Below are positions 7,674 to 14,458 of a stretch of 64,000 nucleotides of DNA, piece after piece. The stretch lies in the NCBI GenBank assembly GCA_010405405.1, contig MU004236.1, positions 1,618,070-1,682,069 of the forward strand, written 5' to 3'. The stretch comes from Microthyrium microscopicum. Lineage: Eukaryota. The notes under the pieces were generated by a model, which did not search any database, was not told the DNA's origin, and saw only the letters and a program-made list of their open reading frames with translations. Every line of letters starts with the position of its first letter. Position 1 is the stretch's first letter. Both the position numbers and the translations under genes were made by a program.

Positions 7674-8099
7674 TCATGAAATCAGTCTTCTAGGTTTGAG
7701 ACCAGTTGATGGAGTTTTATCATACCCCTGTTGGCCGGCATTTCCACCACTTTCGGAGGTCATTTGATATACACTCCATAAATTCTGGCCTCCACACATT
7801 TGGAAAGGATATCCAGCGCAAGGATTGTTGCAAGAAGCTCCATCAACTAGAGCATCGTTTGGAGGCAGTGAGTCGCCACAGTAGCAGTCGGTTCCATTGA
7901 CTAGACCCATTGTGATGTGCTCAAGCTGAAAGCATGTATTTCGGCAGTACCCAACAGATTGATAGATGTCAGACCGCTGAAAATGCATAGGGACGTAGTT
8001 GTAGCATCCAACGTAAGCTGAAGTCTCCTGGGCTGTTGAAGGAGCGCCGAGAAAGGCTAACGCCGTGGTGGCAAGATATGCCAACCATGGGAAATGCAT
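7674..8099 (-). CDS. Small secreted WSC-domain protein
   Basis: Signal peptide MHFPWLAYLATTALAFLG.. followed by WSC pattern YVGCY...QSVGYCRNTC...GLVNGTDCYCGD...CNNPCAGYPFQMCGG..LWSVY. No TM or GPI tail evident. Confidence 0.88.
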   Translation of the reverse strand: MHFPWLAYLATTALAFLGAPSTAQETSAYVGCYNYVPMHFQRSDIYQSVGYCRNTCFQLEHITMGLVNGTDCYCGDSLPPNDALVDGASCNNPCAGYPFQMCGGQNLWSVYQMTSESGGNAGQQGYDKTPSTGLKPRRLIS

Positions 8100-8676
8100 G
8101 TTTGAGTATTTGAGAACAAAATCTGTCTATGCAGGTGTTTAGGGAATGTGAAATCGTCAATATAGACGGAGGACAGTTATGACGGTATTGTGAACGCCTT
8201 TTTACCCCTTTCAAATTGTGGTGGCAGTGCAACATGCCATCTGATTGGTGGAGGCTTAACAGCCTACGGGTTCAGCCTTATAGGTGCAGAAGGCTGAATA
8301 TTCACTATTCACCCATCATTTACTTGATCTTCTAACTTCCAGCAGTTTCTTTCTGTCAGACGAATTATCTCCCAGTGGCGCGTCATTGCAACTTTTCAGC
8401 TCTCATAAGGTCGCACCAGTTTTTATCTTCTCCATTATATCGACAGTTTTCCTGACGAATTGCAGTTCATAAAAAGTAGGAGGTGAAACGCCTGCTCGCC
8501 AGTACATTCGTGGATATAAGTATACGAGGGAGATGTGGGCGGTCCTCTTATTTTTTGCTGCTGTCAGTGGCCACTTATACGTTATGAAAGGATTCCAAAG
8601 TCACAGACAAGGCGTCATTGGTCTTTCAGTCGACTCAGCCTCGACATTTCTCTTTTAAGCCATTTACAGGGATCAC

Positions 8677-9096
8677 GCGGGCTTTGCTGAAGAGCCACTC
8701 CAGAGCCTTATGGAAGCCTATTTCAATTTGGATAACATAATAGCTGACATCGAAGGTGTCGATCGGGTTTTGAAGTTGAGGAAGCCCAGGAATGGGGAAG
8801 AGTGAAGGTGAGCTTTGTCGACAACACAGGCCATTCTGCAATACCTGGGCTGCTGACATTGCACTAGTAAACATTCCAAACCGCTTTTGGGACGTTGATC
8901 GGCAGGTCCCAACCTTGATAACAACTGGAAGCGTTCATCTCTCTCAAGAGCAGCCAAAGACGTCCATGCGTTGAGCGTGACAGTTCTGGCTGAGGACAAA
9001 AGAGTCAAATGGAATCACAAGAACTCCAATGAATAAAAGAAGATCCTGAGCTTACAGAAGTGGAAATGCAGATGCATTCAGACGCTGATCAAGTAA
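8677..9096 (+). pseudogene. Probable decayed gene fragment of unknown family
   Basis: One reading frame (AGFAEEPLQSLMEAYFNLDNIIADIEGVDRVLKLRKPRNGEE*...AAKDVHALSVTVLAEDKRVKWNHKNSNE*KKILSLQKWK) spans a canonical 60-nt intron at 8808-8867 (GTGAGC..GCTGAC..TAG). Exonic stops are TGA, TGA and TAA. Confidence 0.4.
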
Positions 9097-9132
9097 GCTA
9101 TGTGCCACCTTTAAGTGCGAATCCGCATCGAT

Positions 9133-9251
9133 TGCGATATCTACCACCAAGTGTGATATCTACCACCAAGTGCGATATCTACCACCAAGTGCGTTATCTA
9201 CCATCAACTGCTATACCTACCATCAGCTGCGATATCTACCATCAACTGCGA
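9133..9251. repeat. 19-bp minisatellite, 6 copies plus a partial
   Basis: Unit TGCGATATCTACCACCAAG at 9133, 9152, 9171, with drifted variants (..CCATCAAC / ..CCATCAGC) at 9190, 9209, 9228. No spacers. Confidence 0.92.
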
Positions 9252-9938
9252 CGGTTATGATCATCCTTTGTGCTAACAAATGCCGTTTCTTCTGATAACA
9301 GACAACATGAATTAACATTACGTATATCGATACTTAAGAGCACCCAACAAGGCAACAGAGAATCTATGTGATGTCTGCCTCATTTAGCATCTGAAATGTA
9401 CGGGGCTGTGTCAGTAAACCTGAAAAAGGAGGCGGCTTTGGAGGCTGAGCAGCCACTGCAGCTTCAGACGCACTGCACGTTGATGGGCGTACGAGACATA
9501 GCCTGACGAGATCAAGATTCTTTGCTAACAAAGTTCCTCTGGTTTTCATGAGAATTTCAGATTCGATATTTTTGCAACTTGTCGTTGCGCACTGCACGTG
9601 AAACCTTCAACGATCATCTCAACAAGCATATTATATCTCATAGAAGGAAGCATCCTGCTCAGGTGTACTTACCATCCGGTTTATCCTCGACACCACCACT
9701 TGCATATTGCCCCGCACCACTATCTTCACCGCAAGGAACCAGAGCCTTATTGCATATCATTTGGGCAATTACCACAGAGCCCATTTGTTCATGGCCAAGT
9801 CGAGATGACTTCAAGCATCAAGCCAAACTTCGATTAGGTCAGAGTAAGCCATGTTAGCCCAGCCTGACGGGTAAACACACTTTCACTCGCGAGTTGCGAT
9901 CAAGCCAAGCTCGACGATATAGAGTCCATCGTCTTGCA

Positions 9939-12900
9939 ATGGATCCTCTGTCAATAACGGCGGCTGTTGTTGGTCTGCTCACCGGATGTGGCAAGATTGG
10001 ATTTGCCTTGAAGGAATTCCATGATGGCTCTAACCATGCCTCCACCGCTGTCAACGGCCTCATCCTTGACGTGGAAGGTTTTGTCAAAGTCTTGGAGCTC
10101 ATGAAAGCCACGATTGAGCAGCCAAGCATCCAGACATCACTGCACAGTACTGGCCATATCGGCAATCACTGGAGCAACATCACAAAGCTCATCAATAATG
10201 CCCAGCAAACCCTTGCTAGGCTGAGCGACATGCTCGAAAAGGTCAACAAGAGCGTCAAGTTTCTTGATGGAGCGAGAAAACATCTTCGACTGAAGTCTGC
10301 ATCTGAAGAAATTGCTACTTTCCACCTTGAGATGAAATCTTACAAAGATACGTTACAGCTCTCGATACAAACTGTGATATCGTAGGTGTTTGAAACCTTC
10401 AAAAAAAAAATGCAGGCTTACTAAACGTGCCTAGGTGGAATCAAGTCAACTTTCAGGAGTCCACAAGTCAAATCTTACCTAGCTTGGAAGACTTGAGTTT
10501 AGAGGTTAGACGGATTGCCTCAGTTCTTCGGGAGCGAATGATTCAACTGCAAAGCACTGGAGACTCGACCATAGAACAGCATCAGCTTATAACTGCTGAT
10601 AATTTGACAAACTGTGTCCGCTCCGCTGCCTCAGTAGTTTCATCTGCGTCGACCATTCTTGGAATCTCTCCTGAAAATAATGTCCCGGGTGCTCAATCAT
10701 CAGAATTCGGAGACTGTTTTCCGATCGAACACAACGAGACCATGCAAAGATGGTTATCCTCCGTTAGTGTGTACAGATCAGGTCCTTCTCGGGTGCCGGA
10801 CGACACAAGAAGCGCCATATGGCCCGCTGAAGACAACGAAGTTCACCATTCAGATTCTGACGATGACCTGGAGCAAGAGATCGTTCAAACACTTCTCGAA
10901 AAAGGAAAAGAGAAACTCACTTCAGACGACATAGTTGCTGCTGAGCGTCTATTTCTTAACTGCCTTGCGCGGAGCTACCAAGTCAGATCTTTGAGGCTGA
11001 CTTTCGAGCAACCAGTTCTTAACCTTTTGAAGGAGATATATTACTCTCAGGAAGACTGGAGCCAGCTTCAGGGTATATTGATAAAGCAAGTGGCACTACA
11101 ATCACGAATTGCTACCAGAGGTGGCGATGACGGGCATACTCTGCTTCTTGAGCTCTCTGATGCGCTTCTGAAGCTCAAGAATTATACTGAAGCTCGTCTG
11201 TACGGTAGAAGAGCTCTCAAAACAGCCCGCAAGCGTCAAGCATCATCCAGAGTGGAGGCTACTCGAGCTTCTCTAGATATGCTAATTAGCATTTGCCAAG
11301 CTGATAATGATTTGGATGGGCAAGAAGCCTATCAGCTGATATTGACTGATCTAATTCAGAAGACCAAGTTGCAATCGACTGGGTCCACACTGCCATCTTC
11401 TCCTTCTGAAGTGCAGAATAAGATTCTGACTGAAAATTCCACAGCAAATGCGTCTCATCTCAAATCCGCGTCTGCAGGCCTTGTTGGCTTAGAAACTGAG
11501 CATGAGCGTCGAGAAACACGAGAAGAGCTACAACCAAGTGATGGAGAACAAGGTTCATCGCAGCCGCAATCCACAAGCATAGCCCAACCTATTGAGGCTT
11601 CACCTATTGGCGATTCAAGACCAGTGCAATCCTCAGAGATAGCATTGAATGCTGCAAGGTAAACGCGACATGTGAGCAGAGAAAAAGTTGCTAATGGTTA
11701 ATAGTTCGAAATCACTCGAAATATCGAGGCCAGAAGCAGAGATTTCAAGAATGGTTGATCATGCGTCTGTTATGCCAGGAAAACACAGCACGGAAGGCCA
11801 AACCTATAACGAGTCGAACCCAAAATCTCGACACTATATACATTCCGAATACGATCCCTTCAGAATTTCAAGCTCATTAAGTCTGGAACTTCGACCCTCC
11901 TCAGTAATTCTTCATGCTAGCCCTGTGCGTGATGTCGCTGTAAGCCTGGTTTCTCTAGAGCAACAGATCGTTTGTGATGGCGAAGCTACCATATCTTCTT
12001 CCTCTAATTTGTCTCTTGCAAGTACTGGCGGAAGACGAGAGAGGCAACTGCTAAATTCAATGAATGTGGAACAAGCACATACTGACAATACTCTGCCATT
12101 TCCAAGTGCTGAGTCTTCCAATTCGGAAGACTCAAAATCCATTTCTGCAATACAACTTGCTGGTGTCCAAATCTGGGCCGTGACGAGTGAATCCAAGAAA
12201 GAAACAATAACTTTGGCGACAGGTTTAAAGTTGATGGACACGCAAACCGTTATGACTGTTAACGCCTCTGAAAGGCTCGCTTTCAAGCTGGCTCTGGAGA
12301 AACATTTAAGAAATTTCACATATAACGCAATGCCCGTTATCGGAAATGGCGCGTGTCTTGAAAACGTGGTCCTACTCATCAACGGCAGCTATCACGATCT
12401 ACCTTTAGAAGAGAGAAACGTAGAACTGCTTCTGCAGGTGGCTCGAAAATGTAAAGCCATCATCTTTTATCAACTCTCACCTGATCGAAACAGGGATATA
12501 CTGAGTCTAATACGACAATACAAGGGTCAAAAACAATCCAGAAAGGCCATTCTGCTCTCCATTGCCAACACTAGACCTCAGATCTCAATACTCGAAACCT
12601 CTAGAATATTCGCTGAAGGATTGACTCAATCTCGTTTTACAGCAAGACAAGCCAACCAAGCCATTTCTAACATTCCAAGACTCTTTCTGTCACCGCTTGA
12701 TAGCCTGCGATGCGATGCTCGGAGAAAAGTTGTAGTTGTAGGAGACCCCATCCAGGGAAAGACGGCTCTCATGATGTAATCCTTCTGTATAGTCCTTCAT
12801 TGGGATACTTGTGCTAACATCTCCTGCTCTAGCCGATTTGCGCGGGGCGAAATGATTGAGGTAAGAACAGATCCTATTGATGTCTCTGATGGTCGTAGCT

Positions 12901-13564
12901 TGCTAAGATCCATAATCCAGGTTAACAGGGCAACGGTGGGTCTTGACCAGTACGTTGGCTGGGGTTATTGTGTGGATCAAAAAGTCGAGCTGTCTATTTG
13001 GGATACACCAGGAATCGAAGATTATGACAGATTACGCCCACTATCGTATCCTGATAGTCATGCTATCCTGATATGTTTCGGTATTGATGCTCCGGACTCA
13101 CTCGATAATGTACAGGAAAAGGTTTGTGTGTCTATGCTTTCTAGTAGATGTCGCTTTTGGTATCGTGCTAACACAAGAGAATAGTGGATACCTGAGGTGC
13201 TCCATTTCTGCAGTGGACTGCCCATAATTCTTGTAGGCCTAAAAAAAGAACAGCGCACCAATTCAAGTACAATCGAAGACTTGCATAAAACGGGCCAAGT
13301 GCCTGTTACTATGGATCAAGTAAGACGATGTTTTGGGTACAAGTACCATAACTTGCAACCAGCTAATTGATCTTGTAGGGAGAAGATGTTGCAAAGAGGA
13401 TAGGCGCTGTAGCGTATTTAGAGTGTTCAGCTTTTACAGGCGAAGGCGTCACTGAAGTATTTGATCATGTTGCAATGGTAACTACCCAGTCTGTTGCAGT
13501 CAAGACGACGACGAAAAGCCTTCGCACGCGACTAGGTATACGAAAGAGTCAAATCAGAGAATGA
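9939..13564 (+). CDS. Chimeric protein (~1095 aa): HeLo-like N-terminal domain / TPR-like helices / degenerate P4-ATPase P-domain fragment / degenerate Rho1-like GTPase
   Basis: Exons 9939-10381, 10435-11658, 11705-12775, 12833-12860, 12921-13121, 13185-13319, 13379-13564. All six introns are GT..AG, 46-63 nt, with CTAA-type branch sites, and keep frame (3288 nt total). N-terminus [20 protein letters not shown] is typical of HeLo-like fungal STAND N-terminal domains. C-terminus contains [55 protein letters not shown], which is Rho1-like. Confidence 0.82.
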
Positions 13565-14152
13565 TCTCACAAATTCAACCGGATGTCGAAGCTCCAGATC
13601 TCGACTAGCGTTATGGACTACATACTTAGGTTTAAAGGACGGATATAATTTTGATTCGATGCAGAGATATCTTAGGTACCTACCTAAGTTACCCAAGGCC
13701 AAGAGTGCAGACGGGTACTCTGGTTGTTCCGCAAATATGATATGATGCTAGGGTGTTCATGCACGCGGTATATCAGGCACTCAAACATTGCCATCTGGTG
13801 AACGATGGGTATCTCTAATGCAACTCTGAGCATGCTCTGATATCGGCGATGCGATGTAGTTGGACAGCGATGAAGTCAACACTGGGCCCTGGCAAAGACT
13901 TGCAATGACGAAGGGACCCAGTCGCGTGCCGTGGACACTAAACAAGACTAACACTGAAATCGACTAGACGCTGATCTTGCTGGGCCTCGGGACGCTCGCA
14001 GCGTGGCAATGGACACGCGAGTGACGCGACAAAATGATATCCATAAGAACCAAGGTTTCGCCTGTGGTCTATACCATATCGTTAGTACATAGCCGTGCAT
14101 AGGGGAGTGGTAAACACGCTCCTGACACGCTGCCACGGTGCTGTCACGGAGC

Positions 14153-14458
14153 TGTCACAGACTAGGAGCAAGGTAGAGTATTCTAATTGGTTGATAATTA
14201 TTAATAAGAAAGAATATTAATAAATCTAGGAGCTATCGGAGTTAAGGGAGTAAGTAGTAAGGATAAGGGTCGTGCAGTATATATTCAGTTTATGAGTAAA
14301 TTTATTTTTAGATCTCGTATTATCCTTATAGAAACTAAGCCGTAATTCTATACATAATAATGTAATAGCCTAGCCGCTTATAGCTTAGCCTAAGCCGTAA
14401 ACTAGCAAACTCTCTTTAAGCTAACCACCAGCCAACCACTAGTTCAATTCTCGCAACA
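14153..14458. mobile_element. Probable RIP-mutated solo LTR (306 bp)
   Basis: AT-rich, TpA-rich island bounded by TGTCAC...GCAACA; flanks GGAGC and GTAGC give a 4/5 TSD match. Confidence 0.5.

Follow-up and report, generated by a model that had tools for sequence, protein, structure and literature searches.

A putative pseudo-GTPase domain derived from Rho1 at the C-terminus of a fungal protein with a HeLo-like head

The gene and its splicing

The window analysed here is a stretch of 64,000 nucleotides from Microthyrium microscopicum (GenBank assembly GCA_010405405.1, contig MU004236.1, positions 1,618,070 to 1,682,069 of the forward strand), and our subject is a seven-exon gene on that strand (Table 1), in which a Rho1-like stretch forms the C-terminal domain of a single protein of 1095 residues, spliced as modelled. 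An earlier note on this DNA had taken the stretch for a free-standing small GTPase beginning at 12720; neither a gene nor an exon starts at that position, which lies inside the exon that begins at 11705, and the Rho1-like part is instead the last domain of a protein that also has a HeLo-like head and a flippase-derived module. Fusion to these two modules changes what the Rho1-like domain can do. We hold the overall architecture of the protein, and the origin of its modules, with high confidence.

The P-loop codons lie within an open reading frame (ORF) at 11676-12779, which remains open over the 338 codons that precede the Rho1-like part (from 12720 back to 11706), and the DNA, when spliced by coordinates, gives a frame that is intact over 1095 residues. 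Window positions 9500-13900 were compared with contigs of three public sequencing runs, among which X6 is a single 151-nt piece that we left uninterpreted. The 5375-nt contig of X5 spans the whole stretch without one differing letter outside the introns that it skips, and these are exactly the six predicted introns (GT..AG in every case; 53, 46, 57, 60, 63, and 59 nt); in the contig of DNA run X1 all six are still present. We read the X5 contig as spliced RNA because an intron-free form is what spliced RNA yields. Eight homologues whose sequences start with the same residues fix the start codon at 9939. As a separate observation, the X5 contig reaches ∼1.04 kb past 9500 and 273 nt past 13900 (∼8461-9938 and 13565-14173 beyond the coding region), which implies a leader of ∼1.5 kb or an overlapping neighbour transcript; it ends where an AT-rich relic begins, at ∼14160.

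The sole public protein identical to the window is a 196-residue 'ras-domain-containing protein [Microthyrium microscopicum]' (P0002), which begins at a Met within the mini-exon (exon 4) and reads intron 4 as 20 protein residues. That this model is correct, and that the locus encodes a free-standing protein starting at that Met, is favoured by its presence in NCBI, UniRef, and nr and by its 100% identity to the window over the query; yet such a protein would be missing β1 and the P-loop, and the X5 contig splices the P-loop exon onto the mini-exon and removes the intron that the model treats as coding. We reject it on these grounds as extremely improbable, and correct the public annotation: what is listed as a protein of 196 residues is part of the 1095-residue protein. 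A collection of 5.8 billion proteins held no longer protein from the locus (exon 3 as query gave none, and exon 1 gave no identical match), and a comparison of exon 3 with long proteins gave no significant match among 7357 candidates.

Table 1. Features of the gene and of its product, in window positions unless residues of the protein are given
Feature	Position	Strand	Basis or remark
Coding region	9939..13564	+	7 exons, 1095 codons plus stop
Exons	9939-10381, 10435-11658, 11705-12775, 12833-12860, 12921-13121, 13185-13319, 13379-13564	+	GT..AG splicing
Rho1-derived G domain, residues 895-1095	12720..13564	+	split by introns 3-6; basic tail, no CAAX box
G1 / P-loop GDPIQGKT	12741..12764	+	GxxxxGKT frame retained; three inner residues differ from GDGACGKT
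Switch I, rewritten, one-residue insertion, Thr retained	12924..12953	+	alignment with fungal Rho1
G3 DTPGI	13002..13016	+	Asp and Gly retained; Ala to Pro, catalytic Gln to Ile (13014-13016)
G4 LKKE (fungal Rho1: CK[KV]D)	13239..13250	+	alignment with fungal Rho1
G5 SAF (fungal Rho1: SA[KR])	13427..13435	+	alignment with fungal Rho1
Stop codon	13562..13564	+	spliced reading
P-loop, switch I, β2-β3	residues 893-951		24/47 invariant positions kept
Switch II, α3, β5	residues 952-1011		44/50 invariant positions kept
Remainder of G domain	residues 1012-1070		15/21 invariant positions kept
Intron 3, 57 nt, phase 2, in Ile codon after P-loop helix start	12776..12832	+	GT..AG, X5 joint
Intron 4, 60 nt, phase 0, open in frame	12861..12920	+	GT..AG, X5 joint
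Intron 5, 63 nt, phase 0, after ..NVQEK	13122..13184	+	GT..AG, X5 joint
Intron 6, 59 nt, phase 0, before GEDV	13320..13378	+	GT..AG, X5 joint
Exon 1, HeLo-like / PigL_N (PF17111) helical domain, hydrophobic first helix	9939..10381	+	profile match, homologues, model
Exon 2, rest of conserved family region, weak TPR-like matches, then start of low-complexity linker	10435..11658	+	blastp, Pfam
First part of exon 3, Ser-rich linker	11705..12134	+	no Pfam or PDB match; outside exon 3's three flippase matches
Degenerate C-terminal half of Drs2-type P4-ATPase P domain, residues ∼700-885	12135..12692	+	profile, PDB, BLASTP, Foldseek
Flippase motif TGD, here TSE	within 12180-12206	+	flippase motif
Flippase motif CRVSPLQK, here YQLSPDRN	12468-12491	+	flippase motif
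Flippase motif GDGAND, here ANTRPQ	within 12558-12581	+	flippase motif

The Rho1-derived domain and its introns

Judged by its sequence, the G domain descends from Rho1 beyond doubt, because of its identity to Rho1 and because a fungal Rho1 comes first among solved structures. It is ∼56% identical to fungal Rho1: 101-109 of 193-194 aligned residues agree with seven canonical fungal sequences, which were drawn from the best 120 of 815 protein matches, and neither the Rho insert region nor the core strands are gapped in the alignment; the Pfam Ras profile (PF00071) matches 12834-13121 at E 3.5e-13. When solved structures were ranked with the public model P0002 as query, the fungal Rho1 6jik_A led (E 8e-59), followed by yeast RHO1, RhoA (∼1e-47), and Rac1 (∼1e-40). 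The alignment and the ranking thus bear out the derivation from Rho1 that the earlier note had proposed. Its list of deviant motifs (P-loop, switch I, DTPGI, LKKE, and SAF) was accurate to the codon, the Ile codon at 13014-13016 included, and the CAAX prenylation box is indeed missing: there is no Cys among the last 45 residues, and the C-terminus is basic.

Two details need adjusting. For G4, the change to LKKE holds but the consensus xKKD does not, since the canonical fungal form is CK[KV]D and the decisive change is that of Asp to Glu. The claim that substitutions of G14 and Q63 block hydrolysis likewise holds for the Gln-to-Ile part, but is too general for a Pro at the other position: H-RAS G12P is called catalytically competent and non-transforming in one study (PMC6662853). 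Because Pro at the Ras G12 position is not disabling by itself, the case for dead hydrolysis rests mainly on the Gln-to-Ile change. In the Ras family, changes of the Gln, of the G4 Asp, and of G5 weaken hydrolysis and guanine recognition. The motif losses accordingly predict no normal hydrolysis, weaker or altered base recognition, and no membrane anchor of its own, with the fold still intact. As far as its motifs indicate, the domain is a pseudo-GTPase, if that is taken to mean a GTPase fold that has lost its catalytic motifs and lies inside a larger protein. A further candidate, in which the CAAX Cys became Ser and the stop codon was read through, was dropped; two alignments place the tail differently.

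Conservation across the domain is uneven. As a reference set we used 54 full-length canonical Rho1 proteins out of 118 (64 were dropped), chosen because they are 185-215 residues long, end in a CAAX box, and have canonical motifs at G1 and G3. There are 119 positions, among them the G4 Asp, that are at least 95% invariant in this set, and the window domain retains 83 of them. From switch II onward it is nearly intact, as the earlier note had said, with 44 of 50 invariant positions kept in the switch II, α3, and β5 part compared with 24 of 47 from the P-loop to β3 (Fisher p 1.2e-4). As a member of the fold family of fungal Rho1 and RhoA, the domain shares with them its core strands and Rho insert, an almost unchanged stretch from switch II to β5, all four intron places and, among the motifs, the GxxxxGKT frame, the Thr of switch I, and both the Asp and the Gly of DxxG. 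It departs from them in lacking the CAAX box and with it the lipid anchor, in a switch I that is largely rewritten, in replacements of three P-loop residues, of the catalytic Gln, of the Asp in G4, and of the basic residue in G5, and in being the last domain of a 1095-residue protein. We disfavour plain decay because the motif loss is uneven across the domain.

The earlier note had placed the four introns of the Rho part at rho1 intron positions, and we find this for all of them in gene calls and for introns 4, 5, and 6 also in DNA. Gene-call breaks were counted in 118 of the 120 best-listed proteins (P0001 and P0002 were left out), many of which are ORF-style calls, made on genomic contigs, that read across a boundary between exon and intron. 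At the place of intron 4, 33 of the 118 start their Rho1 similarity at the V of VYVPTV, with unrelated residues ending in Q or K before it; similarity ends after NVQEK, with V next, in 47 (intron 5), and after PVTxx[E/Q], again with V next, in seven (intron 6); two (P0112 and P0078) break in the Ile codon after TCLL, in phase 2 (intron 3). A metagenome scan with the canonical Rho1 P0053 contributed 80 loci out of 503 relatives, to which two loci from a scan of prokaryote genomes were added. Each of these 82 loci gave one high-scoring segment pair, and introns occur only in L043 and L082, the others resembling cDNA or intronless genes. L043 has a GTAAGT..TAG intron between TFPE and VYVP, at the same codon boundary as intron 4, and L082, which is fungal-type genomic DNA with two introns, has these (both GT..AG and phase 0) after VQEK and before GEE, matching introns 5 and 6.

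Exon lengths also match those of canonical rho1 (28, 198+3, and 135 nt), the sole deviation being 3 extra bases. The rho1 intron pattern depends on lineage, since in other fungi intron 3 is absent or one lies after GACGK instead (P0051, P0075, and P0055). Because all four introns sit at rho1 intron sites of other fungi, the comparison supports duplication of a genomic rho1 as DNA and not its retroposition, which is the origin that the earlier note had favoured. The flippase similarity ends ∼12 residues before the Rho1 similarity, and the latter starts at about residue 5 of Rho1; on this alignment, nearly the whole Rho1 coding region is appended. The gene would be a clean example of exon-level accretion, in which a copied gene retains all its introns.

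Four of the Rho matches deserve mention in their own right. A 1088-residue protein annotated from the tick Dermacentor albipictus (P0001) has ∼12 tandem copies of the RhoA switch II-β5 region between a RhoA-like start and end. In P0005, from a 699-nt ENA contig, a Rab6/Ypt6-like start is joined to a Rho1 switch II exon; this is probably a chimeric contig or call. L081 and L082 are fragments of eukaryotic Rho genes, yet they lie on short contigs from assemblies that bear the names Microbacterium arborescens and Pedobacter sp., most likely through contamination.

The N-terminal head and the flippase-derived piece

By homology, the first 470-515 residues belong to a family conserved among ascomycetes, whose members have a HeLo-like/PigL_N head followed by a tetratricopeptide repeat (TPR)-like region. 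The relatives of exon 1 are eight fungal proteins (P0124-P0131; E 2e-44 to 4e-33, 45-58% identity) from Tricladium, Stipitochalara, Halenospora, Coniochaeta, and four further contigs, and in a local blastp of the spliced protein residues 1 to 314-515 align with them at 35-49% identity. Six of the eight pass the cut-off of PF17111 (PigL_N, formerly Helo_like_N), and several have TPR matches. In the window protein, exon 1 spans profile positions 1-135 of 209, a partial coverage that arises because exon 1 ends there, and the matches of exon 2 to TPR_12, TPR_16, and TPR_2 (E 0.005-0.009) are all under their cut-offs. A model of exon 1 built from nine sequences is a five-helix bundle with a predicted local distance difference test score (pLDDT) of 80.2. 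Exon 2 and the linker gave nothing usable against the PDB. As a lead only, a Protein Atlas search with P0124 returned one ascomycete PF17111 cluster (81 members, score 0.93).

PF17111 is treated, in the relevant passages of one paper, as a HeLo-like, pore-forming, MLKL-related head of fungal NOD-like receptors (NLRs) and of their partners, and its profile is aligned there with the MLKL executioner domain in basidiomycete homologues (PMC9815663); a list in another paper places it among heterokaryon-incompatibility-type domains (PMC7082219). The window protein resembles the HeLo-like proteins and fungal NLRs with such heads in its N-terminal domain family and in the TPR-like region behind it; unlike the NLRs, it carries enzyme-derived modules at its C-terminus, and Pfam found neither NACHT nor NB-ARC in the six exon translations searched at E up to 0.1. 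We considered membership of the fungal NLRs, or of the signal-transducing ATPases with numerous domains (STAND), and rejected it because of the absence of these two domains.

Between the linker and the Rho part lies a degenerate piece of a P4-ATPase. A search of exon 3 against 1.84 billion representatives gave three matches, all of them P4-ATPase pieces (E 5.3e-7 to 4.8e-4, query residues 136-321); residues 7-181 of the stretch at window positions 12120-12719 align with Drs2p 820-986 (E 3.4e-5), ATP11C and ATP8A1 coming next; and BLASTP with P0121 gave 50 of 192 residues identical (E 5e-15). A local profile placed flippase similarity at residues 700-851 and none upstream. In a model of the piece made from five sequences, Foldseek ranks 1-33 are all P4-ATPases (best E 5e-6), an outcome favoured by the presence of flippases in the alignment behind the model. 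The piece is thus like Drs2p-type P4-ATPases in its alignment (residues ∼700-885 with Drs2p 820-986, the only part represented) and in the match of its model to the flippase P domain, and unlike them in being half of one cytosolic domain, with no membrane helices, DKTGT segment, TGD, or GDGAND.

A second flippase fusion occurs in the Coniochaeta ligniaria relative P0127 (1120 residues). This protein is like the window protein in its head family (37% identity over residues 1-473) and in carrying a C-terminal cytosolic piece derived from Drs2; unlike it, its flippase piece is longer and much better kept (residues 750-1092 match Drs2p 602-943, E 9e-33), spanning the N domain and part of the P domain, again without the DKTGT segment or membrane helices, and the annotated protein ends without a Rho-like domain. 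Both pieces are closest to Drs2 and share a few derived residues, and neither is as close to the other as it is to canonical flippases. We lean towards one old flippase fusion followed by fast divergence, and think two independent captures less likely. A Protein Atlas search with the tail of P0127, which is again only a lead, returned P-type ATPase fragment clusters alone. P0127 also has a direct duplication of roughly 70 residues in its linker (residues ∼505-650), and its final residues can be aligned, if loosely, to the sequence that immediately precedes the Rho-like domain of the window protein; the P0127 gene model might be truncated, with Rho-like exons downstream.

Possible roles of the protein and its surroundings

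Taken as a whole, the protein is best read, and with moderate confidence, as a membrane-acting protein with a non-prenylated pseudo-GTPase as its regulatory or sensor module. In the history that we propose, a flippase piece would have joined the head family first, and a duplicated genomic rho1 would have been added behind it at a later time, in the lineage leading to this genome; we suggest this order because the Coniochaeta relative has the longer, better-kept piece and no annotated Rho part. The G domain should still fold, given the core strands, Rho insert, and nucleotide-binding frame that it keeps, and Rho switching would be impossible with its Ile, Glu, and Phe at the Gln, G4 Asp, and G5 positions, its rewritten switch I, and no lipid anchor. 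Loss of the switch would make the domain a pseudo-GTPase, a protein-binding module in a fixed state, whose conserved switch II/α3/β5 face would be bound by a partner or by some other region of the chain itself. The earlier idea of a hydrolysis-dead or pseudo-GTPase that keeps one interaction face would therefore survive in its lost motifs and its kept face, and not in its free-standing form. Together with the dead flippase piece, the G domain would then probably control or aim the N-terminal membrane-acting helical bundle; this regulatory mechanism we put forward tentatively.

The atypical Rho proteins, of which Rnd and RhoH are examples, and pseudo-GTPase domains in general likewise have the GTPase fold with replaced catalytic positions, used as a fixed module, although the window domain differs from them in being a recent, recognisable Rho1 derivative with its introns in the same places. 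In MLKL, a pseudokinase domain controls a four-helix bundle. The likeness to MLKL is one of analogy only, a membrane-acting N-terminal bundle being followed by dead-enzyme modules that could restrain it; in place of a pseudokinase, the modules here are a pseudo-GTPase and a piece of a pseudo-ATPase, and there is no evidence of activation by phosphorylation. Pseudo-GTPase domains inside a large multidomain protein are described for p190RhoGAP in the part of that literature drawn on here (PMC5593906), where the companion is a RhoGAP domain and not a HeLo-like head and a flippase piece. The modules are of known kinds and their combination is new: the open-access papers searched described no HeLo-like protein with a Rho- or flippase-derived module, and none of them mentioned both HeLo-like domains and P-type ATPases. 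If the C-terminal modules do control the head, the protein would be a compact and experimentally tractable system in which pseudoenzymes regulate a fungal membrane-acting bundle, and would test whether bait-type sensing exists outside NLRs.

Several results weigh against this reading. The RNA label of X5 is a guessed one, and one contig is not proof of a single transcript. Exon 1 alone matches PF17111 at E 1.2e-5 and 25.3 bits, below the cut-off of 27.2; the best Foldseek match of the head model has an E of 0.013, short of 0.001, among unspecific helical bundles only; and in VIA the head model matched IncA (Z 14.4), Rx-CC (13.0), NRG1 CC-R (9.7), and AtMLKL3 (8.0, a weak match for the head fold) amid many unrelated bundles. 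The flippase-piece model is weak (pLDDT 59.5), the flippases in its alignment bias its fold search, and exon 3 yields no long relative, just its three weak flippase matches; the module may be young and functionless. No second genome with the Rho-like module appeared, the other 119 of the best 120 of 815 protein matches being ordinary Rho proteins, fragments, or repeats. The conserved middle of the G domain could, moreover, come from gene conversion by the host rho1 instead of selection.

Such a gene could simply be a young chimera without function, in which a segmental duplication put rho1 behind an existing gene, the copied introns still splice, and the Rho part is drifting. The restriction of the Rho-like module to one genome and the heavy mutation of its pocket and switch I fit this account, as does the position of the gene ∼6.5 kb from a 42-kb AT-rich block, rearrangements being common in such blocks. 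Drift has, on the other hand, left 201 codons and four introns intact and the core strands and Rho insert ungapped, and the replacements are strongly non-uniform (the Fisher test above), unlike neutral decay, although gene conversion could mimic that pattern; we think this origin rather unlikely. A working nucleotide switch with odd chemistry, which binds GTP or another nucleotide, takes its catalytic groups from a partner, and regulates the protein, would make sense of the kept GxxxxGKT frame, switch I Thr, and DxxG Asp and Gly, and of the compatibility of Pro at the Ras G12 position with catalysis in H-RAS, as that study words it (PMC6662853). It is very unlikely in view of the catalytic Gln that has become Ile, the G4 Asp that has become Glu, and the G5 Lys/Arg that has become Phe.

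The remaining alternative gives the dead copies a use as bait: Rho1 and flippase copies would mimic the targets of toxins or effectors, and their binding or modification would free the HeLo-like head, with membrane damage and cell death as the result. Integrated decoys in plant NLRs follow the same logic, although the present protein has no NLR core, and both Rho1 and the Drs2 flippase are central to cell-wall and membrane homeostasis. It would explain why two unrelated fragments of essential genes, their catalytic residues gone, stand behind a domain of a family described as pore-forming, and why the G domain has kept its interaction face and its switch I Thr while losing its chemistry. Putative decoys, e.g. 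a CHK-2-derived kinase, have been proposed for Sordariales NLRs (bioRxiv 10.1101/2024.11.26.625400), and these and the plant decoys are like the window protein in being fused copies of host proteins in which catalysis is dispensable. Yet the window protein is not an NLR, with NACHT and NB-ARC both absent, and a bait function for it is pure conjecture; there is no sign of diversifying selection or of paralogue expansion, and the Rho-like module comes from a single genome. Most of the residues targeted by known Rho-modifying toxins are changed as well, namely the positions of RhoA Y34, N41, Q63, and the CAAX Cys. We therefore consider this use unlikely. The fuller version, a single-chain immune protein that is bait and executioner at once without an NLR core, would have acquired its Rho1 and Drs2 baits one after the other, first the flippase piece, before two ascomycete classes diverged, and then Rho1, and engagement of a bait would free the head to permeabilise the membrane; this we regard as distinctly unlikely.

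The window is eukaryotic, fungal-type DNA, with its gene-bearing part at 1-20 kb (45-50% G+C). The neighbouring genes are ordinary, encoding a SNARE, an M28 peptidase, a WSC-domain protein, a PAF-acetylhydrolase-like protein, and a KH-domain protein. Of these, the WSC gene lies directly upstream and is divergent (7674-8126, minus strand), with a signal-peptide-like start and a WSC domain (PF01822, E 3.7e-15); yeast WSC sensors signal to Rho1, and that this gene adjoins a Rho1-derived module may be a coincidence. A 19-nt unit is repeated 6.3 times at 9133-9251, ahead of the start codon. The AT-rich block at 20001-62000 (42 kb, 19-28% G+C between flanks of 45-50%) looks like an isochore derived from repeats by repeat-induced point mutation.

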